A DNA stretch of 64,000 nt from Candidatus Nanosyncoccus sp. (GCA_045541995.1 JAZQKE010000002.1:36399-100398); one strand, 5' to 3'. Shown: positions 14,595 to 63,206, counted from the first letter of the stretch. Numbers and translations: made by a program. Notes: generated by a model not told the origin, from the letters alone.

Positions 14595-15611
14595 CTATAT
14601 CTCCACACCCTCCACACTAGTCAGTATTACTTGGTGATTTTTAAAATTCTTCACTAGACTATTTTGTCTATCTTTATCCAATTCAGAAAAAACATCATCT
14701 AATAATACAAGCGGCTTTTTTTGCTGTGATTCTTGTATTAATTCCGCCTCAATAAATTTGAGTGCCAATATAATACTCCTCACCTCCCCACGTGAAGCGC
14801 TTCCATTAGCCTGCATACTATTAAATATAAAACTGTAATCATCTTTATGCACTCCAAAATTTGTATGTCCAGTTATTTTATCCCTATCAAAATCCATCGC
14901 GAGTAGTTTTAGATATCCACTCTCATCCACGTTGCTAGTATAACTATCAAAATTAATTTCTACAGTATCATTATTATTTGCTATAGATCTATATGTTTTT
15001 GTTAATGTTTTATTAATTTTATCTATAATATTTTTTCTTTTTTCTCTAATTTCTACTCCATATTTTGCTAATAAAACATTCCAAGAAAACAGCATCTCCT
15101 CGCTTATATATTCATTCTTTAGAGCTTCATTCCTCTGTTTTAGCGCTTTATTATAACGAAGTAGGGAATTATTATATTTATCATCTAGCTGACTAATTAG
15201 TCTATCAAAGTAATCCCTTTTCTTAGTTGGTGATGTTGCAATTAGATGTAAATCTTCCGGTAGAAAAAGAATTATCGGGTATTTTTGCGACTTAGGTAGT
15301 CTCGCTGATTTTTTCCCATGGATTAAGAAAGTTTTTTTAGAAGTATCATCACTATACGTCACTACTACCGACTCACCATTTTTGTAGTAAAGTTCCACCC
15401 TATAGAACTCTTTTTCTCGCTTTACAATCTCTCTATCTACCGCCCGAAAACTTTTCCCCTGCATCGCAATATAAATTGCCTCTAAAATTGATGTTTTACC
15501 ACAGCCATTTTCCCCCAATATAAGAGATGTTTTTTTATCACAAGTAAGTATTCGCTCCGTATGGCTACGAAAATTTATTAAGCTTACTTTCTCAATTACT
15601 ACATCTTTCAT
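14595..15611 (-). CDS. recF: DNA replication and repair protein RecF
   Basis: LINFRSH, Walker A GENGCGKTSILEAI, ASRGEVRS signature, LLDDVFSELD; downstream of dnaN. Confidence 0.92.
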   Translation of the reverse strand: MKDVVIEKVSLINFRSHTERILTCDKKTSLILGENGCGKTSILEAIYIAMQGKSFRAVDREIVKREKEFYRVELYYKNGESVVVTYSDDTSKKTFLIHGKKSARLPKSQKYPIILFLPEDLHLIATSPTKKRDYFDRLISQLDDKYNNSLLRYNKALKQRNEALKNEYISEEMLFSWNVLLAKYGVEIREKRKNIIDKINKTLTKTYRSIANNNDTVEINFDSYTSNVDESGYLKLLAMDFDRDKITGHTNFGVHKDDYSFIFNSMQANGSASRGEVRSIILALKFIEAELIQESQQKKPLVLLDDVFSELDKDRQNSLVKNFKNHQVILTSVEGVEI

Positions 15612-15616
15612 CTATA

Positions 15617-16723
15617 TTAAATATTTAGTGGCATAATAATATGTCTATATTTTTTGTCTTTTAAATTTGTTATTAACACTGGTGCTGAGCCCACCGCAAA
15701 CTCCATCTTTACATGATCCTCTTCTAGTACATTGAGTGCATCCATCAAGAAACGAGAATCTAACTTTACTTTACCACTTTTTTCTATTTTAGCTTCAATT
15801 TCTGATCTGTTTTCGCCTACTTCATTAGAGATAGATGAGACAGAAAATATCCCTTTCTTCGCGTCCGTCTCACATGTAATTGCTCTATTAGACTCTCTCG
15901 CAAAAAGTGCAGCTATTTTTACAAATCTACTTAATTCCTCTCTATCCAAATCAACTTTTATCTCATTATCTTTTGGAATCAACTGTCTATAGTCTGGAAA
16001 AGTACCGTCAATTAATTTTGATGTAATTTCCAATTCACCCACTCTGAATCTCACTTGGTTATCATCAAATAAAATTTCAATCTCATTCGCATCTTCTGGA
16101 ATAGACCTTAAAACTTCTTGTAAAGAAGCTGTTGGTACAATCGCAGCCACATCACTTTTAATCTTATCAATAAACTTCCTCTCGGCAAGCCTATATCCGT
16201 CCGTCGCCGCTACGTAAAGAGCTCCATCCGATGTATTAAAATATACACCGGTTAACGCTGGCCTAGTAGTATCTCCACTAGCTGCAATAATTACTTCAGA
16301 TAAACCTACCTTAAACTCGTCTACCCCCATTCTGTAAATTACGGCTTTGCTCTCATCAATCTCTGGTAGTTCTGGAAAATCATCTGCCGGCGTTCCATTA
16401 ATTACTGATGAGTATCTACCAGCTGAAATATTTACTCTATTTTTATCAACCTTAATTTTAACCTTTTCACCACGAGGTAAATTTTGAACAAACTCAGCAA
16501 TTAGTCGCGCAGGAACCGTAATAACCCCATCTGTAGCATTGATTACTGGTACGAAATCCACTACAGCCATATCTAAGTTTGTTGTGATTACAGATACTTT
16601 TTCTTTTTCTGCTTTAATTAAAACATTAGACAAAATTGGTAATGTAGATTTTGCACCCACAGCAACTCTACTAACTACACTTAGTGCCTTAGCAAGCTTT
16701 TCGCGTGAAACCTCAATCTCCAT
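15617..16723 (-). CDS. dnaN: DNA polymerase III beta sliding clamp
   Basis: LPILSNVLI, TNLDM, DDFPELP, ATDGYRLA, LIDGTFPDYRQLIP, IIMPL; SD AGGAGG. Confidence 0.97.
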   Translation of the reverse strand: MEIEVSREKLAKALSVVSRVAVGAKSTLPILSNVLIKAEKEKVSVITTNLDMAVVDFVPVINATDGVITVPARLIAEFVQNLPRGEKVKIKVDKNRVNISAGRYSSVINGTPADDFPELPEIDESKAVIYRMGVDEFKVGLSEVIIAASGDTTRPALTGVYFNTSDGALYVAATDGYRLAERKFIDKIKSDVAAIVPTASLQEVLRSIPEDANEIEILFDDNQVRFRVGELEITSKLIDGTFPDYRQLIPKDNEIKVDLDREELSRFVKIAALFARESNRAITCETDAKKGIFSVSSISNEVGENRSEIEAKIEKSGKVKLDSRFLMDALNVLEEDHVKMEFAVGSAPVLITNLKDKKYRHIIMPLNI

Positions 16724-16761
16724 TTTTCCTCCTAATTATAATTATTATTTCTTTATTAAAT

Positions 16762-16998
16762 TAATAGTAGTAATAGTAATAAGCTATGTGGAAATTGTGT
16801 AAAACCTCCCTACTAATAGATTATATTCGGTGCGGAAGTTTGTGTAAAACAAGTTGAAAAAACTGTGCAAATTTTTGTGGAAATTTAACCTTTTCCACCA
16901 AATATACATACTGCCAACAAATTTTTCAAACACAGTGGAAAGTTTTTCACCGCTTTCCCACATATTTTTTCGCAGATATTTTCGCATTTTTTTCCACA
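16762..16998. promoter_or_regulatory. Replication origin (oriC), dnaA-dnaN intergenic: DnaA-trios plus DnaA boxes
   Basis: Seven TA(A/G) trimers at 16762-16782, a GCTA spacer, then tandem boxes TGTGGAAAT (16787) and TGTGTAAAA (16796); further boxes at 16841, 16876 and 16990; AT-rich DUE on the left. Same layout as the Bacillus-type basal unwinding system. Confidence 0.85.
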
Positions 16999-17000
16999 AT

Positions 17001-18359
17001 CTACTCATAGATTTTCTCCCGTGTGACTGCTACCCTCTCTCGTAAAGCGAAGTCGGATTTAATATCCTCTCGAATTTTCTTAATGCCATGCATCACAGTG
17101 GTATGATCCTTAACACCTACTTCCAGAGCAATTTTAGTAGTACTCATCCCTAACTCCTCCGACAATAAATACATCGCTATTTGCCTTGCAGTTTTAATAT
17201 GGGACACCCTACTCTTTCCACACATCTCCTTGACACTTAATCCGGAAACATCAGCTACTGTATCGACAATCTTGGTAGGTGAGATGACACCATGCCTAGA
17301 TTCTATCTTTGTAGTTACGTAACCATCATTAATTACTGCCAGTGGGGAAATACCCTTAAACTCAGCGAAAGTTAGGATTTTCTTATATTCACGTTCTAGA
17401 TCACGGATGTTAGTTTTTACACTTTCAGCAATATATTCTATAGCCTCGTCTTCGATTTCCACATCATCAAACTCGGCCTTCATACGCAAAATTGCACACT
17501 TATCCTCAAATTTTGGTAATTGGATATCGTACGCCCCATCACAAGCTAAGCGGGAGGATAAACGCACATCTAGTGATTTTAATTGCTCTGGTAGGCGGTC
17601 TGAAGTAATAATAATTTGCTTACCGTGTTGATGAAGCTCATTAAATACATCAAAGAAGGCATTTTGGGTAGCTTCTTTATTAATAATCATTTGTATGTCA
17701 TCAATAATGAGAACATCAACCTTCTGGTATTTTTTAGTAAATTTATTACCTTGCTTTGAACCAAGAGCCTCAATAAACTCATTGTAGAAACTATTTGTAG
17801 GCATATATACTACTTTCAACTCAGGTCGAGTCTTCAATAATTCATTTCCAATAGCTTGAACCAGATGAGTTTTACCAAGACCAGGCCCACCATATAAATA
17901 GAATGGATTGTGTCTAGTACCAGGCTCCCTAATAATTGCCTGCGCAACTGAAGCAGCCAAATCATTATTTGACCCAACTACGAAATTATCCATAGTGTAA
18001 TTTGGATTCAAATTAGAGTTAATTTTTTTAGTAGAAGATATAGAAGCCGATTTTTTCTTTGATGCGGATCTTGTCAATTCACCAATAGAAATTTCTCTAG
18101 AGCGAGGTTTTACGCGTGTTTCCGAGGAAACAATATATTTTACATCAGTAAAATCTACCGAATTATGAGTAAGAGCATCACGAATTACACCATCATATTT
18201 TTTGCGTATTTGACCTTCCTTAAATACATTGGGGGTCTTAATAATAACAACATCACCATCGATAGAATCTAAAGAAACATCCTTAAACCAGGTGGTAAAA
18301 GCAGAGTGCGGAATAGCCTGCTCGACTTCGGCAAGAACATTTTTCCACACATCAAACAT
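17001..18359 (-). CDS. dnaA: Chromosomal replication initiator DnaA
   Basis: YTMDNFVVGSNNDLA, NPFYLYGGPGLGKTHL, LIIDDIQ, IITSDR, LSSRL, ARQIAMYL, KDHTTVMHG; SD AGGAGGT. Confidence 0.98.
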   Translation of the reverse strand: MFDVWKNVLAEVEQAIPHSAFTTWFKDVSLDSIDGDVVIIKTPNVFKEGQIRKKYDGVIRDALTHNSVDFTDVKYIVSSETRVKPRSREISIGELTRSASKKKSASISSTKKINSNLNPNYTMDNFVVGSNNDLAASVAQAIIREPGTRHNPFYLYGGPGLGKTHLVQAIGNELLKTRPELKVVYMPTNSFYNEFIEALGSKQGNKFTKKYQKVDVLIIDDIQMIINKEATQNAFFDVFNELHQHGKQIIITSDRLPEQLKSLDVRLSSRLACDGAYDIQLPKFEDKCAILRMKAEFDDVEIEDEAIEYIAESVKTNIRDLEREYKKILTFAEFKGISPLAVINDGYVTTKIESRHGVISPTKIVDTVADVSGLSVKEMCGKSRVSHIKTARQIAMYLLSEELGMSTTKIALEVGVKDHTTVMHGIKKIREDIKSDFALRERVAVTREKIYE

Positions 18360-18427
18360 ATCCGATTACCTCCTGACCCACCTTGATGAATTAAACTCTA
18401 AGAATATTATACACCATCCACCCGTAC

Positions 18428-18557
18428 TTTTCCACAACAAGACCAAAAATAGTTTTCATTTTATAATAAAAATTTCAAATAACAGGGGTAGACTTTTCCA
18501 CAATAATACCGCCAAATCTGTATAAAATGTGGAAAACCCCTTGGTTTTTGTGTAAAA
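18428..18557. promoter_or_regulatory. DnaA-box cluster in the dnaA-rpmH divergent promoter region
   Basis: TTTTCCACA at 18428 and 18494, TGTGGAAAA at 18528, TGTGTAAAA at 18549; TGCTATACT -10 at 18561 for rpmH. Confidence 0.7.
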
Positions 18558-18610
18558 AAGTGCTATACTATAACAAAGATTTCAATAATTAAAACTAATA
18601 GGGAATTATT

Positions 18611-18769: not shown

Positions 18770-20512
18770 ATGTTTAAAGAGCAGTTTCGGTACTTTCGTG
18801 ACTTTATTAAGCTCGTAGATTTTAGCTGGTTTTATTTTGTAGCATCACTACTACTGGCAACGGTATATAGATTAGCAGAAGTTGCTATGCCGGCTATTGC
18901 TGCAATGGTAATTGATGCTCTTACCAAACTTAATCGCCCAGATACATTTTTTTATATTTCAATTTATATGTTCGTCTACTTTATTTATGTGGTCTCATAT
19001 TTTCTTGATTGGCGCGTCTATAGCCGAAGTGTGGCGTATTATTACACTCAGCTACAAGAAAAAATCTTCCAAAAGCTCATCTCAGTAGACAATAATTTTT
19101 ATCACAAGATAAATCGTGGCAGATTATTTAATGTTATTAATTCCGATTTATTTAGCATCGGCGAGGGGAGTGATAATTTAGCAGAATACATAATTACTTT
19201 TGCCCAAATGATTGTGATTGTAATTATCTCACTACGCTGTGATGTTGTGGTAACAATTCTAATGATAGTGTCCACTATGATAGTTACACGGATGCGAACG
19301 GTCCATGATAGAAAATTCAATTTTTACTGGTGGAAGAGTATGGCATTAAACGATAAGTTTAGTGATTTTGTTAATCAAATATTAACAGGGCTTCAGGAGA
19401 TTAAGGTGTTTAACATGTTACCAAGGCTCCATAGTCACCTAGATATCATCCAAAAAAAATATACTAAGTCTTATCTCACCCAAAGAGATCACCTCACTAT
19501 TAGAGACAATGATACGAAATACCTGATTTATGTATTCCGGGCTGCTATTCTTGCGGTTTGTATCGTGATGATGGCGATGGGACACATGGAGATAGATATT
19601 TTAATTATGCTCTATGCTTATCATCAACAAATTATTAACACCGCAAATAAATTCACTGACGTCACTATTGAGAATAGACTTAACGACGCTTCTATAAGAC
19701 GAGTAGCATCCATCCTTAATTATCGCAATAACAATAAGGCAGAGTTTGGCGATGTCATTCTCGATCAAATATCTGGTAAAATTGAACTTAAGAATATTTC
19801 ACTTACTCTTAACCATCATCAAATTATCAAAGATGTCAGCTTCAAAGTCAAGCCTCATGAGTTTGTGGCAATAGTTGGTTATCCAGGCGCCGGCAAGACC
19901 AAGCTCTTTGATTTACTCCTTCGTATCAATCGCCCTACGCATGGAAAAATTTTTCTTGATAATATCAATATTAATGACTTTTCCCCAGAGGTTTATACCT
20001 CAAACGTCGCCGTCGCAAACCAAGTACCATTTATTTTTAACACTAGCATACGTAAGAACCTTAGCCTTGTAGATACTAATATTAAACACCAAATCGAAGC
20101 TTGTAAAACCGCAGGTATACACAACTTTATCGAGAACCTACCGATGGGATACAACACTATCTTGCGCGAGAATGGTGGTAATATTTCTGGTGGACAACGC
20201 CAAATGATATCAATCGCTAGGACTTTGCTTACTGAATCCGAAGTAATCCTGCTAGATGATGTTTCTACGTCACTCGACCCAGACACAGCTAAACTTATAC
20301 CCCGCCTGATTGAACGAATCCGTGGTAAGCGTACCATAATTATGATTACTAAAAAACCAGAGCTTATGAAAATAGCCGACCGCATTATTGTATTGGACCA
20401 CGGCAAAATTGCTGACTCTGGTACTCATGAAAAACTACTCAAGCGCAGTTCACTATACCGCTCCTTACAAACGGTTAAATCGTCAGATGGTTTGGGAGGA
20501 AACACGACATGA
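18770..20512 (+). CDS. ABC exporter half (TMD+NBD), degenerate subunit of a heterodimer
   Basis: Six-TM domain; GYPGAGKT, ISGGQRQ, Walker B ILLDD (no catalytic E), switch ITKK (no His). Confidence 0.9.
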   Translation: MFKEQFRYFRDFIKLVDFSWFYFVASLLLATVYRLAEVAMPAIAAMVIDALTKLNRPDTFFYISIYMFVYFIYVVSYFLDWRVYSRSVAYYYTQLQEKIFQKLISVDNNFYHKINRGRLFNVINSDLFSIGEGSDNLAEYIITFAQMIVIVIISLRCDVVVTILMIVSTMIVTRMRTVHDRKFNFYWWKSMALNDKFSDFVNQILTGLQEIKVFNMLPRLHSHLDIIQKKYTKSYLTQRDHLTIRDNDTKYLIYVFRAAILAVCIVMMAMGHMEIDILIMLYAYHQQIINTANKFTDVTIENRLNDASIRRVASILNYRNNNKAEFGDVILDQISGKIELKNISLTLNHHQIIKDVSFKVKPHEFVAIVGYPGAGKTKLFDLLLRINRPTHGKIFLDNININDFSPEVYTSNVAVANQVPFIFNTSIRKNLSLVDTNIKHQIEACKTAGIHNFIENLPMGYNTILRENGGNISGGQRQMISIARTLLTESEVILLDDVSTSLDPDTAKLIPRLIERIRGKRTIIMITKKPELMKIADRIIVLDHGKIADSGTHEKLLKRSSLYRSLQTVKSSDGLGGNTT

Positions 20513-22209
20513 AATACTACTACACATTACTGAGACGCTTCTTCTCCATGCACGCCACCGATAAAAGGTTAATGCGTAATCTAATCATTACTGCTGTTTT
20601 GCGCACGGCCACTAATCTATCAGTCCCGCTAGTCTCAGCCATGGTAGTGGATGCAGCTACAGATGGTGATTATCGCCGCGCGCTAATTGATGCAGCACTG
20701 TTCGCATTAGTCGCAATTATCTATGTGTTTTTCCATCATCTCAACTACAGAGCATATGCCAAAAACGCACTATTTATCCATAACGCTCTGCAAAGGAAAA
20801 TACTAGACAAAGTTAGCAAGTTAGATCAAGATTACACCAAGAAAATTTCCCATGCTGCCATTGTTAATTCATGCTATAGCGACACAACATCTTGTCAGCG
20901 CATTCCTGATTATCTGTTTGATTTTATTACACAAATTATCGGCATGGCAATAGACGCCGTAATTTTGTTTATCGTTGATCCACTTATTGGCGGAGTCACC
21001 ACAGGCTTAATGATTATTTCGATGGCTGCCTTCGTCCGTCACATGAAAAAACGCGATTACTATAATGAAATCCGCCGTACTCATCAAGACGAGATCAGTA
21101 GCCTATATTCGCAAATCATTGACGGTCACAAAGAAGTGCATACATTTAATTTGCAACAAAAGCTTCACGAGGTGCTCAAAAAGGAAAACAAGGAATGGAA
21201 GAGACTACATCTTAAACAGCGCATGCACAATGATTTAGGACAAGGATTTATCCCAGCTCTACTAGGGCTAGGGCGCATCTTTGCTTATGTCTACGCTGCC
21301 TTCCTTATCCTAAAAGGCGAATACAATGTAGCCACCCTTGTTTTGGTGATTAGCTACTATGAAAATATGAATGAAAAATACGATGATATTTCTACAATTA
21401 TTCTCCAGTTATCAAAAGCCCACGTAGGTATCAACCGCCTATACAAATTCTTCAACTACAAACCGGCTAAACAGACCCAGTTCGGTGAGTATGATAATGA
21501 CTATATTCAAGGGGCAATTTCTTTTAATGATGTCTCTTTCACTTATGGCAGAAAACCGCTGATGCGCGACGTCTCCTTCAATCTTAAGCCGTGCAGCCTC
21601 ACTGGCATCGTTGGTAAATCTGGCTCTGGTAAATCCACCATTTTCCGGTTACTACTGCGACTATACAAGCCAACGCGCGGCAGCATCACCATAGACGGTA
21701 AAAACATCAACAGCTTCAACAAAAAAGTCTATGCCACCAATGTTAGTATTGTTAACCAGAAGCCCTTCGTCTTTGATATGTCCATCAGAGAAAACCTCAA
21801 CATGGTTGACTCAGACGAGGAACACCAGATCGAGGCTTGCAAAAAAGTTGGCATCCATGATTTTATCATGCGCCTAGACAAGGGTTATGATACTGTGCTA
21901 CTGGCGGACGGCAGTAACCTTTCTGCAGGGCACAAGCAGCTTCTCTCTCTTGCTCGCACGTTGCTCAGCAAATCAGAGGTCCTCCTTTTCGACGAGATTA
22001 CATCTACACTTGATGCCGATACTACTAAGCAGATTATCTCAATCCTTAGGAAACTCAAAAAAGACCACACCGTCTTAGTCATTACGCACAAACCAGAAGT
22101 AATGCGCAGTATGGACGAGCTATTGGTTATTGACCAAGGAAGACTGGTTGGTCGCGGCACTCACAAAAATCTCCTACACAACAAATATTACAAACTTTTA
22201 CAAAAGTAG
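20509..22209 (+). CDS. ABC exporter half (TMD+NBD), partner subunit
   Basis: GKSGSGKST, non-canonical signature LSAGHKQ, LLFDE, ITHK; ATGA overlap with the preceding gene. Confidence 0.9.
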   Translation: MKYYYTLLRRFFSMHATDKRLMRNLIITAVLRTATNLSVPLVSAMVVDAATDGDYRRALIDAALFALVAIIYVFFHHLNYRAYAKNALFIHNALQRKILDKVSKLDQDYTKKISHAAIVNSCYSDTTSCQRIPDYLFDFITQIIGMAIDAVILFIVDPLIGGVTTGLMIISMAAFVRHMKKRDYYNEIRRTHQDEISSLYSQIIDGHKEVHTFNLQQKLHEVLKKENKEWKRLHLKQRMHNDLGQGFIPALLGLGRIFAYVYAAFLILKGEYNVATLVLVISYYENMNEKYDDISTIILQLSKAHVGINRLYKFFNYKPAKQTQFGEYDNDYIQGAISFNDVSFTYGRKPLMRDVSFNLKPCSLTGIVGKSGSGKSTIFRLLLRLYKPTRGSITIDGKNINSFNKKVYATNVSIVNQKPFVFDMSIRENLNMVDSDEEHQIEACKKVGIHDFIMRLDKGYDTVLLADGSNLSAGHKQLLSLARTLLSKSEVLLFDEITSTLDADTTKQIISILRKLKKDHTVLVITHKPEVMRSMDELLVIDQGRLVGRGTHKNLLHNKYYKLLQK

Positions 22210-22562: not shown

Positions 22563-22572
22563 TATTCTGTAT

Positions 22573-23664: not shown

Positions 23665-23666
23665 CA

Positions 23667-53622: not shown

Positions 53623-53632
53623 AGGAGGTTAG

Positions 53633-55263: not shown

Positions 55264-55274
55264 TGGTGGGGGCG
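55264..55274 (-). repeat. tRNA 3'-end duplication CGCCCCCACCA (att core R2)
   Basis: TGGTGGGGGCG on +. Confidence 0.9.
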
Positions 55275-55335
55275 AATTGTCCAAGCATTAACAATCTACA
55301 AGAAGATATCGGGCTAAAATTGCTAAATACGCCAT

Positions 55336-55431
55336 AAAAAAAGTTTCCGTCGGAGCAGAATGCTTCGCCCTCGTGAACATCAATAAATGAAAGCTCCGAA
55401 CCTGCGTTACAACGCTGCCCGACGAGCTTTC
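55336..55431 (-). ncRNA. Candidate small RNA
   Basis: TATAAT at 55436-55441 (-), long 5' stem-loop GAAAGCTC...GAGCTTTC with internal GCGTT/AACGC helix, imperfect 3' stem and T7 tract. Confidence 0.35.
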
Positions 55432-55634
55432 GTTAATTATATTAAACTGATATTGGACTTCATTTTTCAATTTGATGGGATGTAATTTTGATTTTCTGCT
55501 ACCAATACTATGGTCGTTGGTTTTGGGATGAAAGTATTAGTAATTATACCCGGTAAATATGCTATAATTATAGAGTAGTCTGAGGGATAAATCCTCAAGA
55601 ACATTAACTTTACACTATTTGGGAGGTGACTGTG

Positions 55635-56756
55635 ATGAAAACAGTTATGAAAATCGTACTCACCGGAGGCCCCTGCGCCGGAAAAACCACGGCGCTGAGC
55701 TGGATCTCCAATTACTTTGGCAAGATGGGCTGGCGAACTTTAATCGTCAATGAAGCGGCAACAGAACTGATTACCGCAGGGATTTTCCCCATGGACTTTG
55801 ACGATCCGCTGTTCTTCCAGAGTATTCTACTGGATACTCAAATGTTAAAAGAACGGAACTGCGTTGATGCAGCTTACGAGCTGAAAGATGCCGATAAAGT
55901 TCTAGTCGTCTGCGATCGCGGAATGCGTGATAACAAGGCTTATATGACCGACGAGCAGTTCGAGGTTTGTCTTGACCGACTCGGCGTAGCCGCACGCGAG
56001 GCTGTAAATAGCTACGATGCGGTGTTCCATCTCGTGACGGCAGCAGACGGCGCAGAGGAGTTTTATACTCTTGCGAATAATGCAGCACGGAGCGAGGACT
56101 TAAAAGAAGCTCGTGTGCTGGATCAGAAAACCCAGAACGCCTGGGTTGGGCATCCGCATCTGCGCGTCATCAAGAACGAAGGGAGCTTTGAGGACAAGCT
56201 GAAGAAACTGCTTTCGGAGATTTCTATCGTGCTCGGCGAGCCGGAGCCGTTCGAGATTGAGCGGAAGTACCTGATCGAGTACCCGGATTTGACGCTTCTT
56301 CGCGAGATGCCAAACTGTCAGGAGGTGGAGATTCTCCAGACTTATCTACGTAGCGGCAATGAGAACGACGAGGTGCGCGTGCGCCAGAGGGAAGTGGACG
56401 GAAACTATACCTTCACGAAGACAATCAAGCGCTGGACAGAGGACCCGACAAAGCGCGTGGAGATTGAAAAGCGCATCTCTAGGGATGAATACCTGAAAGC
56501 CCTAATGGACGCTTATCCCGGCCCGAACTCGATTCGCAAGACGCGGTTCTGCGTTATGCAACGCGAAACCGGCCAGTATCTCGAAATCGACATTTACCCG
56601 ACATCGGATAAATATGCGATTCTCGAAGTAGAGTTTGTCTCGACCGAAGACCAGCTCATTGCGCCGAGCTTCATCAAGGTCGTTAAGGAAGTCACCGGGG
56701 ATAAAGACTATCTTAACTTCAACATTGCTTTCAGAGGGAATCGGCTGCCTGAATAA
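55635..56756 (+). CDS. AAA_28-type P-loop NTPase fused to a CYTH (adenylate cyclase/triphosphatase-like) domain
   Basis: KIVLTGGPCAGKTT, LVVCDRG, HPHLRVI; EIERKYLI (ExExK), RVRQR, EIEKRI, RKTR, LEIDIY, ILEVE; SD GGAGG. Confidence 0.85.
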   Translation: MKTVMKIVLTGGPCAGKTTALSWISNYFGKMGWRTLIVNEAATELITAGIFPMDFDDPLFFQSILLDTQMLKERNCVDAAYELKDADKVLVVCDRGMRDNKAYMTDEQFEVCLDRLGVAAREAVNSYDAVFHLVTAADGAEEFYTLANNAARSEDLKEARVLDQKTQNAWVGHPHLRVIKNEGSFEDKLKKLLSEISIVLGEPEPFEIERKYLIEYPDLTLLREMPNCQEVEILQTYLRSGNENDEVRVRQREVDGNYTFTKTIKRWTEDPTKRVEIEKRISRDEYLKALMDAYPGPNSIRKTRFCVMQRETGQYLEIDIYPTSDKYAILEVEFVSTEDQLIAPSFIKVVKEVTGDKDYLNFNIAFRGNRLPE

Positions 56757-56768
56757 TTGTAATACATG

Positions 56769-56795
56769 AAAACCCGTTCGAGAGAGCGGGTTTTT
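56769..56795 (+). terminator. Rho-independent terminator
   Basis: AAAACCCGTTC-GAGA-GAGCGGGTTTTT. Confidence 0.8.
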
Positions 56796-56813
56796 AACTT
56801 ATATTAAATTAAT

Positions 56814-56837
56814 ATAGCCTCACTGTAGTGAGGCTAT
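56814..56837 (-). terminator. Hairpin, probable terminator of the convergent gene
   Basis: ATAGCCTCAC-TGTA-GTGAGGCTAT perfect 10-bp stem. Confidence 0.65.
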
Positions 56838-56851
56838 GTTTTTGCAGAAAT

Positions 56852-57643
56852 TTAGAGCCATCTTTCTGTCCTGAAGATTTCCCAAGGCTGTGCCTTTCCG
56901 TCTACGAAATTACCCTGTACGGCAAATCTATAAAGTTTATCTTCCAATAGCCTATGCTTTTGTCTGATAAGCTCAAATACTATATCGTTAAAGAAATTGC
57001 TGACGAGGCTATCTTTGAGCGGCTGATACCGCTTTGGGACGTTAATGTTTACTAACTCTGCATTATAATGACAGTCGCTAGTCAGAAAAGCGATTCGCTC
57101 ATCACGCTGTTTAATATATGCATCGTGAGAGACTTTGAATTTCGCGATGGCTTCATTTTTCATCAGGTCAATCCGTTTCTCAACAAATAAAAGCTCATCC
57201 CAGGGTATTATAAATCTTTCATGTATGGCTAAACCCTGAGTGAGTTCGTGCCCATCAAAAGCTTTACCAACAAACTCAACTATAAGACTGTCTTCGATGG
57301 TAAAAACTGAATTAAAACCACCGTCGTATAGGTAACGTGGGCAGCCCGGTTCTTTGGTAGATATCAATAAAAGTACACCCTCGTTGCTCTGTTTGTTAAT
57401 TTTTTCAATCAGAGCTGGTATTTCATTTGTGTATCCGTTGGCCCCAGGCACGACATTTTTCATAGATTGTCCAATAGGCATATCCATGCGACATGGGGCG
57501 AAACTCCCGTGTCTATCTTTTATAGATTCCCATTCTTTCAGATTACTGATGATATCAATATTCTTGAAAGGTGTAACCCTCGGTAAATATTTGTTAAGAA
57601 GCACGATCCCTTTTGCTTTGCCATAATTCATAGGGTTTCTCAT
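56852..57643 (-). CDS. Hypothetical protein
   Basis: 263 aa ORF with SD AGGAGGTG and TGTTATAAT upstream; no motif recognised. Confidence 0.75.
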   Translation of the reverse strand: MRNPMNYGKAKGIVLLNKYLPRVTPFKNIDIISNLKEWESIKDRHGSFAPCRMDMPIGQSMKNVVPGANGYTNEIPALIEKINKQSNEGVLLLISTKEPGCPRYLYDGGFNSVFTIEDSLIVEFVGKAFDGHELTQGLAIHERFIIPWDELLFVEKRIDLMKNEAIAKFKVSHDAYIKQRDERIAFLTSDCHYNAELVNINVPKRYQPLKDSLVSNFFNDIVFELIRQKHRLLEDKLYRFAVQGNFVDGKAQPWEIFRTERWL

Positions 57644-57936
57644 AAAACAACACCTCCTTCTATACGATTGCCCTATTTCTCTGCTGGAAATGTACAGGCT
57701 CCCACCAGACTTTTTTCATTATAACATAGTTATGGACAAAAGTAAAATAGATACGTGGGCAGGTTTTATATGGTTAGATTGTTTAGGGTATTAACAGACG
57801 ATTTATAGAGTCAAAATGCGCTTTCTGGCGCATTTTTCGTGCAAATTTTGTACAAAATAGCAACCTAGAACCTGAAAGGTACTTAACAGAAATCTACTAC
57901 TAAAAAATCGGCTAAAATGCCGACTCATATAAAATT

Positions 57937-57947
57937 TGGTGGGGGCG
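57937..57947 (-). repeat. tRNA 3'-end duplication CGCCCCCACCA (att core R1)
   Basis: TGGTGGGGGCG on +. Confidence 0.9.
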
Positions 57948-58036
57948 AATTGTTCAGGCATTAACAATCTATAAGGAAGATATCCGCGAAAAGTGGCGAC
58001 TTGCGTCTCATGATATAATAGTAGAAAGGAGAATAG

Positions 58037-58696
58037 ATGATAGATTCTAAAGCATGGAACTGGAATATGGTAAAAGGCGACCACGAAAAATATTGGCAAG
58101 AGCCAGCGACGGAATCCTATTATCTCATCAACCGATGGCTTTCCCAGAACAAAAGCGATTTCCTCGATCTCGGTTGCGGGCTAGGAAGACATACTATTCA
58201 ATTTGCCAAAGCAGGGTTTAATACTTCTGGGTTTGATTTAAGCGAAACATCGATCGAAAGAACAGAAGAGTACGCTGAGCAAGCAGGAGTAAAAGTCGAT
58301 TTACGAGTTGGCGATATGCTGAACCTGCCGTACGGTGACGATAGTTTCGATTGCATTTATTGTCGCAACGTAATATCTCATACTGATACAGCGGGAATGA
58401 GAAAAATTGTTTCTGAGCTAAAACGAGTCTTGAGAAAAGGCGGGGAGTGTTATTTGACTTTGGGTTCAAAGCAGACCTGGGGCTTTCAGCAAGATTGGCC
58501 GGTGGTGGACGAGAACACAAAAATTAGAGTTGAGGATGGACCAGAGAATGGCATACCACATTTTTATGCTGACTATGATCTAATCGTAGATTTATTCAGG
58601 GACTTTGAAATCGTGAAAGTTTTTCAAGTTGAAGAGTTTATTACGAAAGAGCGAACCACTAGCTCATATCACTATCACGTACTAATCAGAAAATAA
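58037..58696 (+). CDS. Class I SAM-dependent methyltransferase
   Basis: FLDLGCGLGRH, GFDLS, VGDMLNLPYGDDSFDCI, RVLRKGG; SD AAGGAG. Confidence 0.9.
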   Translation: MIDSKAWNWNMVKGDHEKYWQEPATESYYLINRWLSQNKSDFLDLGCGLGRHTIQFAKAGFNTSGFDLSETSIERTEEYAEQAGVKVDLRVGDMLNLPYGDDSFDCIYCRNVISHTDTAGMRKIVSELKRVLRKGGECYLTLGSKQTWGFQQDWPVVDENTKIRVEDGPENGIPHFYADYDLIVDLFRDFEIVKVFQVEEFITKERTTSSYHYHVLIRK

Positions 58697-58863
58697 TAAC
58701 CTGATTTTAGGGTATTAACAGATGAATTTATAGGGGTAAAAATGTGCTTCCAAAGCACATTTTTCGTGCTAAATCGGTGCAAAATAGCATACTAGGACTT
58801 AGATGGTACTTAACAGAAAATTACTACTAAAAAATCGGCTAAAATGCCGAGTTAGATATAATC

Positions 58864-58939
58864 TGGTGGGGGCGGCTGGGTTCGAACCAGCGACCAATCG
58901 GTTATGAGCCGACTGCTCTAACCCCTGAGCTACGCCCCC
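58864..58939 (-). tRNA. tRNA with CAU anticodon, most likely tRNA-Ile2 (lysidine-modified); elongator Met not excluded
   Basis: GGGGGCGTAGCTCAGGGGTTAGAGCAGTCGGCT-CAT-AACCGATTGGTCGCTGGTTCGAACCCAGCCGCCCCCACCA: 76 nt, full cloverleaf, encoded CCA, G1-C72 paired (not initiator), resembles ileX-type tRNAs; TGCTATAAT promoter at 58953-58961 (-). Confidence 0.93.
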
Positions 58940-58987
58940 AAGAGCTAGACTAATTATAGCAAAAACTGGTATAATAGAAAAGCACAA

Positions 58988-59422
58988 ATGGAAAACATTA
59001 AAACCAAATTTCGTAGACTTGGATACCGCATCAAACGCTGGTTTAATCAGGATCGCATGGTTTTTTTGGTGGCTATCGCCATGTGTCTAATCTGGACCTG
59101 GGGTGCTATTTCTGCGATGACCAGAAACTGGGATCTAGAACAGCGTCTTACCTCTCGGCGCCAGGAGCTAGCTTTGCTACAACTAGAAATCGATTCACTA
59201 GAGCTAGAGAATCGTTATTACGCCTCGGATGAGTATCAAGAGCTAATTGCCCGCGCGAAGCAAAACAAGCTCAATGATGGCGAGACTCTAATATACCTGC
59301 CAGAAAACAGCAATTTCGCCAAAAACAAGCACGACGATACTACAGAGGAGCGTCCAATTACCGAAGAGCCGTCTAATTTCGAGCAATGGTTTACCTTTAT
59401 CTTTGGCTCACAAAAGTCTTAA
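58988..59422 (+). CDS. Septum formation initiator (FtsB/DivIC-like)
   Basis: One TM, a leucine coiled coil, then DEYQELIAR.K......GETLIYLP. Confidence 0.7.
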   Translation: MENIKTKFRRLGYRIKRWFNQDRMVFLVAIAMCLIWTWGAISAMTRNWDLEQRLTSRRQELALLQLEIDSLELENRYYASDEYQELIARAKQNKLNDGETLIYLPENSNFAKNKHDDTTEERPITEEPSNFEQWFTFIFGSQKS

Positions 59423-59472
59423 TTTAGCCTTAAATCATTGAATTTTTATTTCGCTTGTGGTTTAATTAAGAT

Positions 59473-60195
59473 ATGGAAAGGGAAGGTAATACTGCGGAGC
59501 AGCCTATTGCTCCAGATTTGTCTACAGAGCCAACAGATAGCAGTGTGGCTGTAGATACTACGACAGAAACATCGAGTCATCAAACAACACCAGAGGCAGT
59601 TCAGACAGCCCAACCGACACAAACGGAAGAAGCAAATAAACAAACCTCTCCGCAGCCACGCAAAAATAAAAAACGCATTGGCATCATCGCCGGTATTGCT
59701 GTAGCTGTTCTCCTAATTATCGCCGGTATTGCTGCTTTAGCGATTAATTTAACAAACAAAAATCAGGTAGCCCCAGCTGCAAGCGACGCTACAGTAAAAG
59801 ATATTACTAAGGAAATCAACCAACTTTCCGAAAATTCCAATATCGACGGTCTAATTTATTATATTAATGACATAACGACTACCAAGAACGATGGGTCTTC
59901 ACACCAGAACCTGACAAATCAAGATATGGGCGATATCTATAAAAGCGGAATGATGTCAATCATGAACTACATTAACAAAAACCAAGATTTAGGCTCTGAA
60001 CAAAAAGACAACTACACCTCTACCGCCATCAGTTACGCACACTCCGCAGATGATATGCTTCAAACCGGCGGCTCTGCTGCTAGCGTCTACGTGGCCGAGA
60101 GCGCTTTTGGTAATATGGAAGTCGCAAATCAATACTTACAGCTAGCCAAAGAACGTGGGATTAATTACAATATCGAACCAGAAGGGCAAGAATAA
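59473..60195 (+). CDS. Membrane-anchored hypothetical protein
   Basis: Acidic T/E/Q-rich N-terminus, KKR + TM, helical C-domain. Confidence 0.75.
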   Translation: MEREGNTAEQPIAPDLSTEPTDSSVAVDTTTETSSHQTTPEAVQTAQPTQTEEANKQTSPQPRKNKKRIGIIAGIAVAVLLIIAGIAALAINLTNKNQVAPAASDATVKDITKEINQLSENSNIDGLIYYINDITTTKNDGSSHQNLTNQDMGDIYKSGMMSIMNYINKNQDLGSEQKDNYTSTAISYAHSADDMLQTGGSAASVYVAESAFGNMEVANQYLQLAKERGINYNIEPEGQE

Positions 60196-60197
60196 AT

Positions 60198-63100
60198 ATG
60201 ATACAAAATATAATCCAAAACAACAAAGTTATGATTAAGGGGATTTTAGCTTTCGCGGTAATGACAGCTGCTGGTTTTTTAGGCGTTCAGAATGTTTCAG
60301 CGCTAAGCTGTGATTCCAACGAGTCTACTTGGTGGGCCTGTAATACATGTAAGTCTGCTCACTGTGGCGCTACCTGGTTTAATAGTAGTAGCTGGGGAGA
60401 CGAGAGTAATACCCTAAATGTCAAGCCAGGCTCTATAGATGCTACTGGTTATATCCACGGCGCAGTCTATACCAGAGATAGCTCAGCAGAATATTCGCCT
60501 ACCGCCCATGATGTTTGGGTTTTAAGCTGGTTACCAGAAGGCGGCATCCCAGATGCACGTGGTGATTTTGATCCCGTACCGTATGCTGCTAGCTATATTT
60601 ACAATGGCCAAGGAAATGATCTATACCGTGGGAATGAAGGACCAAACGGTTCCTTTAGTACACATTGGGAAGGTAGCAGCATCCCGTTTGCGTTTTATGT
60701 CAAAGATTTCTTAAGAGGCGCTCAGCGTAGTGGTAATACTTTCTCGCGTACGGAACACATTTATCGTTGTTATTTTGCTGATAAAGGTTGCGATGCAACT
60801 CCAACCACTATTAACGTTGAAATCGAACAAACTATTATACCACAAGTAAAACATGATTACTATAGGGTCGCCTATCAAGGTAAGATCTCCCTCAAAAATG
60901 ACGACAACTCCCCCCTGTATGAACATGGATCCATACTTAGCTCCAATAGCTGGCCAGAATATGCTGGTTGGGGCGATGAAAATTCCTATGTGGATGTTAA
61001 TCTCTATACCCCCAAAGAATCTGGCCAAAAACTCCGCTCCATGTATGAACTTAGATGGCAGTGCAACGACTGGGATGGTGTATGCTGGTGGAAAAACCAC
61101 GAAACCTCATATTATCACGTAGACTACTGCTATTATGGACTATGTAACAACTGGTATACACAATATGCCTACCGTAGCGAAATTGCCGGTGGTGAAACTG
61201 GTAGAGGAAACTTTACTGTAGGTGGCCGTGGTGGACAAGGCCAAGTTACATCTCAAAAAACTAAGACCATTAATTCTATTCCTTATGGCACCTACCAATT
61301 CTATACAGAAAATCTCCAATACACAAGCATAGGTATGAACCATAAAGACGCAGATGAAGTCCTATATTCTTACATCGATGACGAAGGTGAAGAACATGTC
61401 GTTAATTATGCAACAATTACCAACGTAGGAGAACCGGACAACACTCTAAACGCCACCCGTAATCTTACAACCATCATTCGTAACCCATACAACTTCACCA
61501 CATCTGTCAGCTCTGCTATTAACGGTGGCAATGGTTCAACTGTCTTAGGTGGCAGTACCGCTACTCTACAGCTATCTGCCAATATCAAATCCCGTACTCA
61601 GCAGGACAGTGTTGCCAGCGCCGAAGTTGGTTTCCCATACTATACCAAGGTACCAGAAGACACCAAAGTAACTGCTGCAAAATTCATTCTCAAACAAGAT
61701 GTTGATGCCAACAGCGTCAACGATCTGCTAAAAGATAGGTTCGAGGTTAATAAATACCAGGTAGCCGATGATAATATCTGTAATTATCTTAACACTACTT
61801 TTGGTTCGAATATCGTTAAGGCGGGTGATACAGAAAGTGATAATAGCTGCCAGACGCTATTTACCGAGGATAGCAACAGTATTAACAATAACATCGGTGA
61901 GACTGGTTGGAATACCAGCGCCAATAATGCAGTAGCTAATAATGGTGTTTCCGCCATCACTGATGAGCACAAGAGCTTTTCTGTCTCTATTCCAGACATA
62001 GAGGATGGTTACAAGTACTGCACTGTTATTGGCATCAAGCACTCTAATAGTGGTGGTCGTGATGGTGGATACTTATTCCCATACTCTATCAACGACAACT
62101 GGCACCTCTCCAACATTTCCTGTCGCACCATTGCCAAGGTTCCATCTTTCCAGACTTGGGGCAATATCTACACTAGCGGCGGCATCAGTACTACTACCGT
62201 CAAAAAGATTCCAGACGCCAATATCAAGACCCCAGCCGAGTCTCAAAAGTACCTCTTTGGTTCCTGGTCCGAGACCTTCTCCCTCGCCAATAAAGACATT
62301 AAGAATTTCGGCACCGGCGCCTCCCTTGGTTATCTTAACAATAATCTCGGCGGCCTTCCGATTGCAGATTCCAATAACAAGATGAATTACTGCAATATCG
62401 TCAACATGACTATTGCCAACACTCGTTGCAATAGCGGCATCGGCGGTAATGCTGGTAATATTGTTGTCTCCAACGAGGATTTCCTTAATAAGTTTGTCGC
62501 TCACTACGCTACCACCACCACCGAGCAATTAGACCGCGTGACAGATACCGTTAGCTATTACAAGGCCAAAGGTAATGCCACCTTTAATGATACATCTGCT
62601 TTGGCAGACAATGGTTATCGTCTTGGCAATGGTGTAATTTCTCTCAATAATAACACCCTGATCTACCAGGTTGATGGTAATCTTACTATTAACCACAATG
62701 TCTGTACTGGTTACCCAACCGAAAGAGATCAATGTAATAATGGCACCAATGATCATTATATCTACAACTTCTATAATCTAGACAATGCCAATGTGCCATA
62801 CAATGCCAGCAGTGACAAAATTCCACAGATTATTATCATCGCCAGCGGCGATATCAATATTGATAAAAGCGTCACAGAAATTGATGCCTGGCTTTACTCA
62901 GGTGGTACCATCAAAACTTGTTACAACGGTAATCTAGGTGATGATTCCTGTGGCGAGCCACTCATTGTCCATGGTCCAGTCTTTGCTAAGAATCTCGAGC
63001 TTCATCGCACTTATGGCTCTGCTGATGCCAGGCGTTGGGAAGGAAACTTTGATAATGACAGTAGGTTCTTCTATTCTGGTGCCGCCACACCAGCAGAAAT

Positions 63101-63206
63101 CTTCGAGCTTCGCTCAGATGTCTATCAGTGGATTTACCAGCAAACCAGTACCGATAATAAAAACGCTAATGTCCGTTACATGCGTGAACTATCACCGCGG
63201 TATTAG
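60198..63206 (+). CDS. Large secreted Cys-rich protein, candidate type IV pilus-associated adhesin
   Basis: Signal peptide, 1002 aa with many Cys pairs, C-terminal GDINIDKSVTEIDAWLYSGGTIKTC...PAEIFELR; directly upstream of a prepilin. Confidence 0.6.
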   Translation: MIQNIIQNNKVMIKGILAFAVMTAAGFLGVQNVSALSCDSNESTWWACNTCKSAHCGATWFNSSSWGDESNTLNVKPGSIDATGYIHGAVYTRDSSAEYSPTAHDVWVLSWLPEGGIPDARGDFDPVPYAASYIYNGQGNDLYRGNEGPNGSFSTHWEGSSIPFAFYVKDFLRGAQRSGNTFSRTEHIYRCYFADKGCDATPTTINVEIEQTIIPQVKHDYYRVAYQGKISLKNDDNSPLYEHGSILSSNSWPEYAGWGDENSYVDVNLYTPKESGQKLRSMYELRWQCNDWDGVCWWKNHETSYYHVDYCYYGLCNNWYTQYAYRSEIAGGETGRGNFTVGGRGGQGQVTSQKTKTINSIPYGTYQFYTENLQYTSIGMNHKDADEVLYSYIDDEGEEHVVNYATITNVGEPDNTLNATRNLTTIIRNPYNFTTSVSSAINGGNGSTVLGGSTATLQLSANIKSRTQQDSVASAEVGFPYYTKVPEDTKVTAAKFILKQDVDANSVNDLLKDRFEVNKYQVADDNICNYLNTTFGSNIVKAGDTESDNSCQTLFTEDSNSINNNIGETGWNTSANNAVANNGVSAITDEHKSFSVSIPDIEDGYKYCTVIGIKHSNSGGRDGGYLFPYSINDNWHLSNISCRTIAKVPSFQTWGNIYTSGGISTTTVKKIPDANIKTPAESQKYLFGSWSETFSLANKDIKNFGTGASLGYLNNNLGGLPIADSNNKMNYCNIVNMTIANTRCNSGIGGNAGNIVVSNEDFLNKFVAHYATTTTEQLDRVTDTVSYYKAKGNATFNDTSALADNGYRLGNGVISLNNNTLIYQVDGNLTINHNVCTGYPTERDQCNNGTNDHYIYNFYNLDNANVPYNASSDKIPQIIIIASGDINIDKSVTEIDAWLYSGGTIKTCYNGNLGDDSCGEPLIVHGPVFAKNLELHRTYGSADARRWEGNFDNDSRFFYSGAATPAEIFELRSDVYQWIYQQTSTDNKNANVRYMRELSPRY

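Follow-up and report, generated by a model that had tools for sequence, protein, structure and literature searches.

One silent-site polarity across the DnaA-dependent replication origin of Candidatus Nanosyncoccus

Copying by two forks that leave oriC is regarded as the rule for all bacterial chromosomes, and the inversion of GC skew is in routine use for origin placement, assembly validation and growth estimates from read depth. How, then, should a locus be read at which the skew passes through the predicted origin and keeps its sign? This question is raised by the window analysed here (the whole stretch of DNA under study, 64,000 nucleotides), which derives from a 757-kb genome (29 contigs) of Candidatus Nanosyncoccus (Saccharibacteria G3). 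The initial annotation described the unflipped skew and named as possible causes a recent origin-adjacent inversion or translocation, a different active origin, strongly asymmetric or unidirectional replication, or a misassembly. The unflipped skew at a well-founded oriC held, and two of the four causes could be rejected. Throughout the study, genes were called with a longest-ORF heuristic, not a gene finder, and annotated through NCBIfam matches.

The origin region and its strand bias

The window carries a normal, conserved DnaA-dependent origin, with its parts in the textbook order: rpmH, DnaA boxes, dnaA, DnaA boxes with an AT-rich tract, dnaN and recF. Three genes lie on the minus strand, i.e. 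recF (14595..15611; TIGR00611, 290 bits), dnaN (15617..16723; TIGR00663, 268 bits) and dnaA (17001..18359; TIGR00362, 426 bits), while rpmH, encoding ribosomal protein L34 (18611..18748; TIGR01030, 65 bits), is on the plus strand. The oriC consists of two parts. Its first half is the dnaA-rpmH spacer (18360..18610), around which TTTTCCACA boxes were found at 18341, 18428 and 18494 (plus strand) and at 18528 (minus strand); with 4 boxes per 400 bp this is the top window, and hence the densest DnaA-box cluster, genome-wide. The second half is the dnaA-dnaN spacer (16724..17000), which contains TTTTCCAC-type DnaA-box-like motifs and the AT-rich tract and is the second densest cluster, so that the two densest clusters of the 757-kb genome sit on either side of dnaA. 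Box clusters and an AT-rich element beside dnaA are what is expected of a canonical oriC. The top cluster is likewise located at dnaA in the genomes G213, G006 and G021, and the ++-- arrangement of boxes in the dnaA-rpmH spacer recurs across the genus.

On the left, the origin is flanked by a type IV secretion (T4SS)-like cluster (3..14593, plus strand, convergent on recF), recognized by NCBIfam matches and including a TrsD/TraD-like gene (4253-5380), a VirB4-like ATPase (5364-7199) and a peptidoglycan hydrolase (9940-11160). On the right, two ABC exporter genes (18770..22209, plus strand; NCBIfam ABC permease/ATPase) are inserted between rpmH and the classical origin-linked genes rnpA, yidC and jag (22224..24131, plus strand; TIGR00188, TIGR03592 and NF041568). 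These are followed by an LCP gene, glycan and cell-wall genes, pta, murC and others (24201..64000). The left flank has a strong strand bias and the right flank a weak one of the same sign.

GC skew of the plus strand was negative in 56 of 63 2-kb windows (18/18 of those starting left of 18 kb and 38/45 of those starting at 18001 or beyond), the seven positive ones being confined to 33-36 kb and 54-60 kb. Cumulative skew, computed over the window, has reached -2.89 at 17 kb and falls on past the origin to -6.01 at 64 kb; the turning point at about 16.8 kb that would have refuted the initial annotation is absent. The G/C skew at 4-fold silent sites was then split into a strand component (S) and a coding-strand, i.e. 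gene-direction, component (A), with bootstrapping over genes. S equals -0.53 (-0.58 to -0.48) left of dnaA (contig positions 1-53121; -0.69 for the part within the window), -0.17 (-0.27 to -0.08) right of dnaA in the window, where A is -0.24, and -0.34 (-0.48 to -0.20) farther right on the same contig. The strand component therefore weakens across dnaA without inverting, and the change of sign expected at a canonical origin was not found between the -0.53 on the left and the -0.17 on the right. The change-point of S lies inside the dnaA-dnaN spacer (contig 53390, window 16992; t = 8.1). Intergenic DNA in the window has a skew of -0.19 to the left and -0.03 to the right. The observation of the initial annotation, that the skew does not flip at the predicted origin, is thus confirmed.

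Left of dnaA, minus-strand genes are G-ending (+0.35; 28 G and 4 C at the 4-fold sites of recF, 25 G and 8 C in dnaN) and plus-strand genes C-ending (-0.71), with coding skews of -0.66 to -0.79 in the T4SS-like cluster. Right of oriC, values of -0.69 to -0.77 were obtained for rnpA, yidC and jag; here codon preference is responsible for over half of the excess of C in plus-strand genes and the strand effect is weak. The suspicion that codon preference alone creates the C-richness is accordingly correct for over half of it on this side and fails as a full account, as S = -0.17 remains. The G-ending murC, to which the initial annotation had drawn attention, was counted correctly (47 G and 29 C), yet it does not typify minus-strand genes: the 11 that the window has right of dnaA divide into six with a C-ending preference, including the LCP gene (32 G and 66 C), four with a G-ending one and a single neutral gene.

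Polarity across the genus

The pattern extends far beyond the window. Among the 20 contigs of at least 15 kb in the same genome (G000) none changes sign, save for one +0.10 bin resting on one gene. In G213 (775,613 bp, of which a 6.5-kb third contig yielded no S estimate), the largest contig (C1; 593,654 bp) has a single sign, every 15-kb bin with an estimate lying between -0.27 and -0.73, and the second (C2; 175,467 bp) shows no sign switch, its lone +0.09 bin resting on few sites. A 594-kb run of one sign in a 776-kb genome cannot be reconciled with two equal replichores. One sign was also found over a 360-kb contig of G070, where S declines from +0.78 to +0.18, over 200 of 238 kb of a G006 contig, and over a 137-kb contig of G021 except for a near-zero bin at dnaA (-0.06). 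In all four dnaA-bearing contigs tested (4/4) the strongest change-point of S falls on dnaA (t = 6.6 to 9.9). The disparity is present in genes of both directions and thus goes beyond gene distribution; in the largest contig of G213, G occupies 7% of the 4-fold sites in plus-strand genes and 27% in minus-strand genes.

Of 80 dnaA loci surveyed, 57 had 300 or more informative sites on each flank. The sign is the same across dnaA in 53 of them (23 one way, 30 the other), canonical in 4 and reversed in 0, counts that overstate the support, as the loci come from kin and are not independent. In all 57 the step is of origin type, S being higher on the right than on the left; its median, 0.29, may be inflated where gene direction flips at dnaA, a fixed A of -0.2 having been used. 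This step is dwarfed by the offset (median |S| 0.54, maximum 0.94). Across 24 control loci of other Saccharibacteria, taken, G027 aside, from metagenome contigs, |S| has a median of 0.05 and a maximum of 0.25, and in the closed genome G027, whose pattern is weakly canonical, just two 20-kb bins reach 0.1 or more (largest +0.19). Loci from an order-wide dnaA search come with 1.5 kb of flank, which does not suffice to estimate skew. Single-contig genomes of the genus were found neither among 200 relatives nor among 176 in a second search; contig orientation is arbitrary, and sign switches could lie exactly at contig ends. In Candidatus Nanosyncoccus one silent-site polarity, independent of gene direction, probably extends around most or all of the chromosome, and only its strength jumps at oriC; this single polarity with a step on dnaA is spread through the genus and nearly absent from the other Saccharibacteria sampled. 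The resulting profile at oriC is a saw-tooth or has two levels. For G213, two levels fit slightly better than a linear saw-tooth; the levels meet about 330 kb from oriC, the antipode being at 388 kb.

Other features of these genomes were also examined. Between 58 and 76% of genes, the ribosomal-protein cluster included, are on the C-rich strand, and the 16S rRNA gene of G213 is on the G-rich one. The silent sites of the G-rich strand favour A over T, the strands being G+A and C+T. Polarity relative to dnaA varies by clade (23 versus 30 loci), and no difference in origin architecture was seen between the two polarity groups (22 and 30 loci), several zero-length spacers in this comparison being artefacts of crude ORF calls. 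Of the repair genes searched for in four Nanosyncoccus genomes and G027, fpg is present in 5/5 and mutY was found in none, while ung is present in 4/4 Nanosyncoccus genomes and was not found in G027; no pattern accounting for the bias emerged from them. PolC, the mark of a Firmicutes-like purine asymmetry, was not found, as 0/177 genomes of the genus reached the TIGR01405 cut-off; the weak matches to this family are ORFs of about 1250 aa, putatively DnaE-like. A search for dif and the terminus with a degenerate dif motif gave nothing convincing in the genus. In G027 its best match (225,414) coincides with the switch of gene direction and skew near 223 kb.

What keeps one polarity

One explanation would be a local artefact, whether from a chimeric assembly, from a recent inversion or translocation close to the origin, or from codon preference alone. 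Genes right of oriC are mostly on the plus strand and favour C-ending codons whatever their strand (A = -0.24); however, the opposite endings of minus- and plus-strand genes left of dnaA are beyond codon preference. From the T4SS-like cluster to past jag, the closest species, G148, has a colinear gene order (window 7.6-39.1 kb, only 66-80% nucleotide identity), which is also kept in G021 and G213. The junctions are bridged by contigs of run X1 (13311-15841, 16729-17762, 18175-19281 and 19430-22291), and many independently assembled genomes share the pattern. Silent-site identity between species is 0.38 to 0.24, against 0.28 to 0.24 expected, and is thus near or at saturation. The bias is therefore maintained now, as a present-day equilibrium, and is not a relic of an old arrangement. 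Given the conserved gene order and the saturated silent sites, both the recent rearrangement and the misassembly put forward by the initial annotation are rejected as unlikely causes; a local artefact is refuted as a full explanation and scarcely credible. For the 13 bins at 8.0-16.7 kb, left of oriC, summed contig word depth in run X1 came to about 8.5, and for the 14 bins at 18.7-28 kb, on the right, to about 8.4; such depth, being one figure per contig with strains pooled, speaks neither for nor against fork asymmetry.

The best reading, to which we assign a probability of roughly 45%, is that replication starts at this oriC with one fork doing most of the work, and asymmetric or unidirectional replication is the best supported of the four causes originally listed. 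Initiation would occur at the DnaA-dependent oriC and elongation would proceed mainly by one of the two forks, either as predominantly unidirectional theta replication or with a second fork that in most cycles is blocked or fails to start. Almost the entire circle would then have the same strand as its leading strand, and a minority of two-fork cycles would create the origin-type step. Two-state arithmetic on G213 (about -0.62 near oriC, -0.37 far from it) would put this minority at about one cycle in four. Replication as the cause, and the share of one-fork cycles, are inferred. Several observations fit one-fork copying poorly: the two-level fit in G213 is also expected from two-fork replication with a constant offset, polarity depends on the clade despite like origin architecture, the gene direction (58-76% on the C-rich strand) misfits the rule that the G-rich strand is leading, and the G-rich strand is rich in A rather than T at silent sites.

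Ordinary bidirectional replication with a terminus roughly opposite oriC could instead give only the step (about ±0.13 to 0.2), to which a mutational process of fixed polarity adds the offset. This main rival is unlikely but has to be taken seriously: the step on dnaA has the origin type in every case and an ordinary size, the two-level boundary of G213 falls not far from the antipode, genes change direction at dnaA in G006 and close to it in G213, and neither polarity group departs from a canonical origin architecture. A transcription-linked cause, however, predicts a shift of opposite sign in the region of G213 with genes on the other strand, which was not seen, and the repair genes tested show no difference between the genus and G027 that could account for the stronger bias. 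The process would also have to act on one and the same strand all round the circle, which is known only of one-way replication and one-way single-strand transfer. Such a transfer, or rolling-circle copying, driven for instance by the T4SS, might repeatedly expose the same strand, with the DNA that leaves first most exposed. The T4SS cluster is indeed directly beside recF, on the side with the strongest bias, in G000, G148, G021 and G213, and the bias fades with distance in G213 and G070; but in G006, where the step is again on dnaA, the main cluster occupies the G-rich strand on the opposite side of that gene, at a distance of 46-53 kb. A link of the cluster to the bias is contradicted by this genome. 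A relaxase and a transfer origin are moreover hypothetical and the discontinuity sits at a DnaA-type origin. We regard transfer as very improbable.

Improbable to a lesser degree is an active origin elsewhere, or extremely unequal replichores, with sign switches in the gaps at contig ends and a minor or silent origin at dnaA. Contig orientation being arbitrary, flipping the second contig of G213 (175 kb) would put two switches at its joins with the first, and about 15% of complete bacterial genomes have notably asymmetric skew (Chen et al., PMC7111523). Both switches would nevertheless have to fall in gaps in every assembly examined (the 29 contigs of G000, and G213, G070, G006 and G021), and neither the sharpest discontinuity on dnaA in 4/4 contigs nor the densest DnaA-box clusters around dnaA would be explained. 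The different active origin of the initial annotation is disfavoured on these grounds.

If the one-fork reading is followed further, it may be, tentatively and at rather less than even odds, that throughout this animal-associated genus the main chromosome is copied essentially by a single fork from a normal DnaA origin, with the direction reversed between clades. The initial annotation had the fork crossing right to left, which presumes that the G-rich strand is leading; this is unsafe here, because about two thirds of genes are on the C-rich strand and the A/T bias is non-canonical. In a bolder variant the leading strand may be the G-poor one, the reverse of the textbook rule, since about two thirds of genes and the ribosomal-protein operon are on the C/T-rich strand and the bias resembles the loss of G from one strand. 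Such a loss may be the class of mutation behind the bias.

Consequences and comparison with known systems

A large genus, widespread in gut and rumen, with non-inverting skew at a bona fide oriC breaks skew-based tools: it would be given wrong origin calls and wrong growth estimates from peak-to-trough ratios. As 4-fold G is as low as 7% on one strand, synonymous codons differ with the strand of the gene, which affects codon-usage and gene-transfer analyses in the group. With hundreds of genomes, the genus is a tractable test of mainly one-way copying of a cellular chromosome, and Candidatus Nanosyncoccus nanoralicus has been recovered from laboratory enrichment cultures (PMC7427843). In the literature on GC skew of Saccharibacteria we found no report of one-way skew, nor any paper treating Nanosyncoccus and skew together; the word 'skew' is absent from McLean et al. 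2020.

Vertebrate mitochondrial DNA has a strand-asymmetric mutation gradient of one polarity, with most genes on the G-poor strand. It resembles the Nanosyncoccus chromosome in the single polarity over the molecule, the gradient from the origin and the location of most genes, and differs in that its strands are G+T and A+C, as opposed to G+A and C+T at silent sites here. Unidirectionally replicating plasmids and Pseudoalteromonas chromids are described as using one-fork theta replication and having one-way skew (PMC7858055); these are secondary replicons with plasmid-type initiators, whereas here it would be a main chromosome with a DnaA-oriC. Chen et al. 2020 (PMC7111523, Supplemental Table S7) list 31 complete bacterial genomes under a 'rolling circle' skew pattern, which likewise lack the usual peak and trough of cumulative skew. 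None of the 31 belongs to Saccharibacteria or other candidate-phyla bacteria, the listing is not accompanied by silent-site analysis, and several are cyanobacteria, a group that according to the same paper includes genomes essentially without GC skew. For Saccharibacteria themselves, canonical skew inverting at oriC and terminus has been stated (Starr et al. 2018, PMC6031116). Nanosyncoccus shares with such an origin the DnaA boxes around dnaA and the origin-type discontinuity there, but the sign is not inverted and the offset is far above the step.

The closest parallel is the order UBA1400 of the Microgenomates (the Ch65 bacterium, Ca. Collierbacteria and Ca. Beckwithbacteria), for which one-way skew of a similar kind is already published. 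Its closed genomes are described as having near-linear cumulative GC skew, and adjacent origin and terminus or unidirectional theta replication were proposed (Kadnikov et al. 2020, PMC7143001). Like Nanosyncoccus, these are small candidate-phyla genomes with a strong G/C strand disparity that gene distribution does not explain, and the UBA1400 report notes little A/T disparity beside it; their one-way skew has its counterpart in the single sign over the large Nanosyncoccus contigs. Nanosyncoccus, by comparison, belongs to another class, Saccharibacteria, and is known from unclosed contigs, and its total skew is weaker (24.2% C and 17.2% G in the largest contig of G213 versus 29.8% and 15.0% in Ch65); it differs above all in its sharp origin-type step at dnaA, a bias that weakens with distance and a polarity that depends on the clade.

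Predicted origin and its surroundings

The window spans positions 36,399-100,398 of contig C2 in a source genome (G000) of 757,581 bp (29 contigs, 98.6% complete), whose closest dnaA relatives are recorded under the names Candidatus Saccharibacteria and Candidatus Nanosyncoccus (TM7 G3 group) and come in most cases from ruminant guts. Genes recF, dnaN and dnaA are located on the - strand (window 14595-18359) and are followed by rpmH (18611-18748, +), two ABC exporter genes (18770-22209) and rnpA, yidC and jag (all +), beyond which lie an LCP gene, a glycan and cell-wall gene set, pta, murC and others. The exporter genes split the usually contiguous rpmH-rnpA pair, likewise in the related Nanosyncoccus genomes G148 and G021. 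DnaA boxes of the TTTTCCACA type are present in the dnaA-dnaN spacer, together with an AT-rich tract, and in the dnaA-rpmH spacer. The predicted oriC beside dnaA is well founded, because these spacers hold the two densest DnaA-box clusters of the whole genome, along with the AT-rich tract. The G+C content of the recF-dnaN-dnaA segment (14001-19000) is 0.33-0.37, markedly lower than in its flanks (0.42-0.47).

A 14.6-kb type IV secretion-like cluster (3-14593, +), encoding a VirB4-like ATPase, a TrsD/TraD-like protein, a peptidoglycan hydrolase and several large proteins without a family match, adjoins recF and is convergent with it. The cluster is also found beside recF in G148, G021 and G213; in G006, another relative, its main part is placed 46-53 kb off, on the opposite side of dnaA. 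The cell-envelope glycan gene set (24201-48619) comprises an LCP transferase, several GT2/GT4 glycosyltransferases, a UDP-galactopyranose mutase, a galactan-type ABC exporter, a lectin-repeat protein, GalE and a priming phosphotransferase, and may be exchanged among strains; nowhere on the contig is strand bias weaker than in this segment, whose G+C content is low in places.

Strand bias at dnaA and across the genus

The initial annotation suggested that GC skew fails to invert at oriC (~16.8 kb), and this was borne out: total skew of the + strand is negative in 56 of the 63 2-kb windows, and the cumulative curve keeps falling straight across the origin. Since total skew confounds gene direction with strand effects, the G/C skew at 4-fold degenerate sites (ORFs being called in all genomes by a crude longest-ORF heuristic) was split into a coding-strand part, A, equal for genes of both strands, and a strand part, S, the + strand bias independent of gene direction. 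Left of dnaA on C2, coding skew is -0.71 in + genes and +0.35 in - genes, giving S = -0.53 [-0.58,-0.48]; right of dnaA, as far as the window extends, they become -0.41 and -0.07 (S = -0.17 [-0.27,-0.08], A = -0.24), and farther right along the contig S is -0.34. The sign of intergenic skew matches that of S. The strand bias thus drops in strength at the origin without inversion. Codon preference, named in the initial annotation as a possible full cause of the C-richness, is only part of the answer: right of oriC it accounts for over half the surplus of C, but it does not make the strand bias positive.

A scan for the largest S difference between neighbouring 40-kb stretches placed the strongest change-point at dnaA in all four dnaA-bearing contigs: G000:C2 (change-point 53390, dnaA 53399-54757, S from -0.55 to -0.18), G213:C1 (469061, 468016-469389, -0.71 to -0.41), G006:C2 (112243, 112076-113419, +0.55 to +0.80) and G021:C2 (97825, 95756-97117, +0.03 to +0.45). 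In each, right-minus-left S is positive, which is the direction expected of an origin and is invariant to reverse complementing. A wider survey covered 80 dnaA loci with 10-kb flanks, 57 of which had at least 300 informative sites on each side; being related to one another, the loci do not count as independent cases. The sign of S is the same on both flanks in 53 of them (in 23 the G-rich strand is the one that encodes dnaA, as it is in G000, and in 30 it is the other), while canonical inversion occurs in four and wrong-way inversion in none. The step is positive in 57/57 (median 0.29), with A fixed at -0.2 and possible inflation where gene direction switches at dnaA; the two-direction estimates of S in G000, G213 and G006 are free of such inflation. 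One Nanosyncoccus-type dnaA contig with equal strand bias (L135) is filed under a Methanobrevibacter MAG title and is probably a binning contaminant of that record.

The one-polarity bias at dnaA is not confined to this locus. None of the 20 contigs of at least 15 kb in G000 changes the sign of S, bar one +0.10 bin based on a single gene. Among the relatives compared within the genus (dnaA 52-85% identical; multi-contig assemblies, with S read in part of G006:C2 and one contig of G070), S is negative in all estimable 15-kb bins of G213:C1 (-0.27 to -0.73; C1 makes up 593,654 bp of the 775,613 bp that this genome has in three contigs) and of one sign throughout G213:C2 (175 kb), apart from one +0.09 bin with few sites. 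It ranges from +0.2 to +0.85 along 200 kb of G006:C2, with dnaA mid-stretch, and from +0.07 to +0.44 on both sides of dnaA in G021:C2, with a single near-zero bin (-0.06) at dnaA, and declines from +0.78 to +0.18 in G070:C2 (360 kb). With rising distance from oriC, S in G213 takes values of -0.71, -0.72, -0.61, -0.60, -0.58, -0.55, -0.45 and -0.51, and then about -0.1 to -0.5 in the half far from oriC. A two-level fit (-0.62/-0.37) slightly outperforms a linear slope and puts its boundary ~330 kb away from oriC, the antipode being at 388 kb. In G213:C1, the DnaA-box cluster that ranks second in density (~297,800-298,700; 3 + 2 boxes in ~1 kb) lies at a + to - gene-direction switch, and the strand bias has no step there.

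Other Saccharibacteria were represented by 24 loci with adequate sampling, their dnaA sharing 64-81% identity with dnaA of G027, a closed 669-kb genome from outside the genus; |S| among these loci has a median of 0.05 and does not exceed 0.25. In G027 itself, only two 20-kb bins reach an |S| of 0.1 or more (largest +0.19), and the pattern is weak and canonical, switching near dnaA and near 223 kb. Therefore, the strong one-polarity bias is a mark of the Nanosyncoccus lineage among the Saccharibacteria sampled, and it is not a product of the A/S method. The best dif-like 28-mer of G027 (225414-225441), at the switch of gene direction and weak skew near 223 kb, is a candidate for the terminus, and a search of Nanosyncoccus gave no equivalent. 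Contig C22 of G000 carries a dif-like 28-mer twice, 73 bp apart (~3130-3230), has a coding density of just 0.61, shows hardly any strand bias, and may be a mobile element.

Chemistry and possible causes of the bias

At silent sites, S for A/T shares the sign of S for G/C in G000, G213, G070 and G006, the G-rich strand being somewhat A-rich; the asymmetry is therefore purine versus pyrimidine, unlike the usual G+T versus A+C. In G213:C1, G occupies 7% of 4-fold sites in + genes and 27% in - genes. The C-rich strand carries 58-76% of genes across contig sets (G000 371/638; G213 329/521 and 111/147; G070:C2 227/343; G006:C2 115/182; G021:C2 79/122) and, in G213, the ribosomal-protein cluster, the 16S rRNA being on the G-rich strand. 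A profile search found PolC in 0 of 177 genomes of the genus at the cut-off. For these reasons the rule that the G-rich strand is leading is not trusted here as a guide to fork direction. The match of fpg (formamidopyrimidine glycosylase) falls into two stretches of one open frame in G000 (C7:9983-10894), G213 (C2:70960-71871) and G006 (C2:45891-46757), which suggests an insertion in the protein; the match is continuous in G021 and G027.

Among the causes listed in the initial annotation, a recent inversion or translocation at the origin does not agree with G148, the closest species, which shares colinear sequence with the window from 7.6 to 39.1 kb at 66-80% nucleotide identity and keeps one sign of S across dnaA, nor does misassembly with contigs from an independent run that span the junctions around dnaA. 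Moreover, third-base identity at conserved 4-fold codons is 0.38 for G148 (0.28 expected from base composition) and 0.24 in G006 (0.24 expected). Third bases this close to random between species argue that the bias must be maintained by a present-day process and is not a leftover of recent rearrangement. As full explanations, rearrangement of recent date, misassembly and codon preference by itself were rejected and retain next to no probability.

One-way copying is the sole established type of process known to leave its mark on the same strand all the way round a circular molecule. The simplest reading of the sequences, to which we give a probability of roughly 0.45, is that replication would begin at oriC beside dnaA, with a single fork performing the bulk of copying and two-fork cycles in the minority (about one quarter by two-state arithmetic on G213). 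The strongly asymmetric or unidirectional replication listed among the possible causes at the outset is favoured, with one polarity along contigs in its support, but ordinary two-fork replication combined with a constant strand-polar process of unexplained nature, which we consider rather unlikely, fits the same numbers, and sequence by itself cannot tell the two apart. An origin elsewhere, with sign switches falling at contig ends, is improbable and leaves the step at dnaA unexplained. A link between the neighbouring type IV secretion genes and the bias is weak and highly doubtful, since in G006 the step is still on dnaA although the cluster sits elsewhere.

Comparison with known systems

Saccharibacteria are stated to follow the typical bidirectional pattern (Starr et al. 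2018, PMC6031116), and no literature report of one-polarity skew in Nanosyncoccus or Saccharibacteria was found. Table S7 of Chen et al. 2020 (PMC7111523) gives 31 complete bacterial genomes with 'rolling circle' skew, none of them from candidate phyla. Near-linear cumulative GC skew was described by Kadnikov et al. 2020 (PMC7143001) in closed genomes of Microgenomates UBA1400, where it is presented as previously unreported in candidate-phyla genomes and adjacent ori/ter or unidirectional theta replication is proposed. In UBA1400 the one-way skew extends over closed genomes; in Nanosyncoccus a single polarity is seen along the contigs of multi-contig assemblies. What Nanosyncoccus adds to this picture is an abrupt origin-type step located at dnaA, a bias that declines as distance grows, and polarities that are opposite between two clades whose origins are laid out alike.
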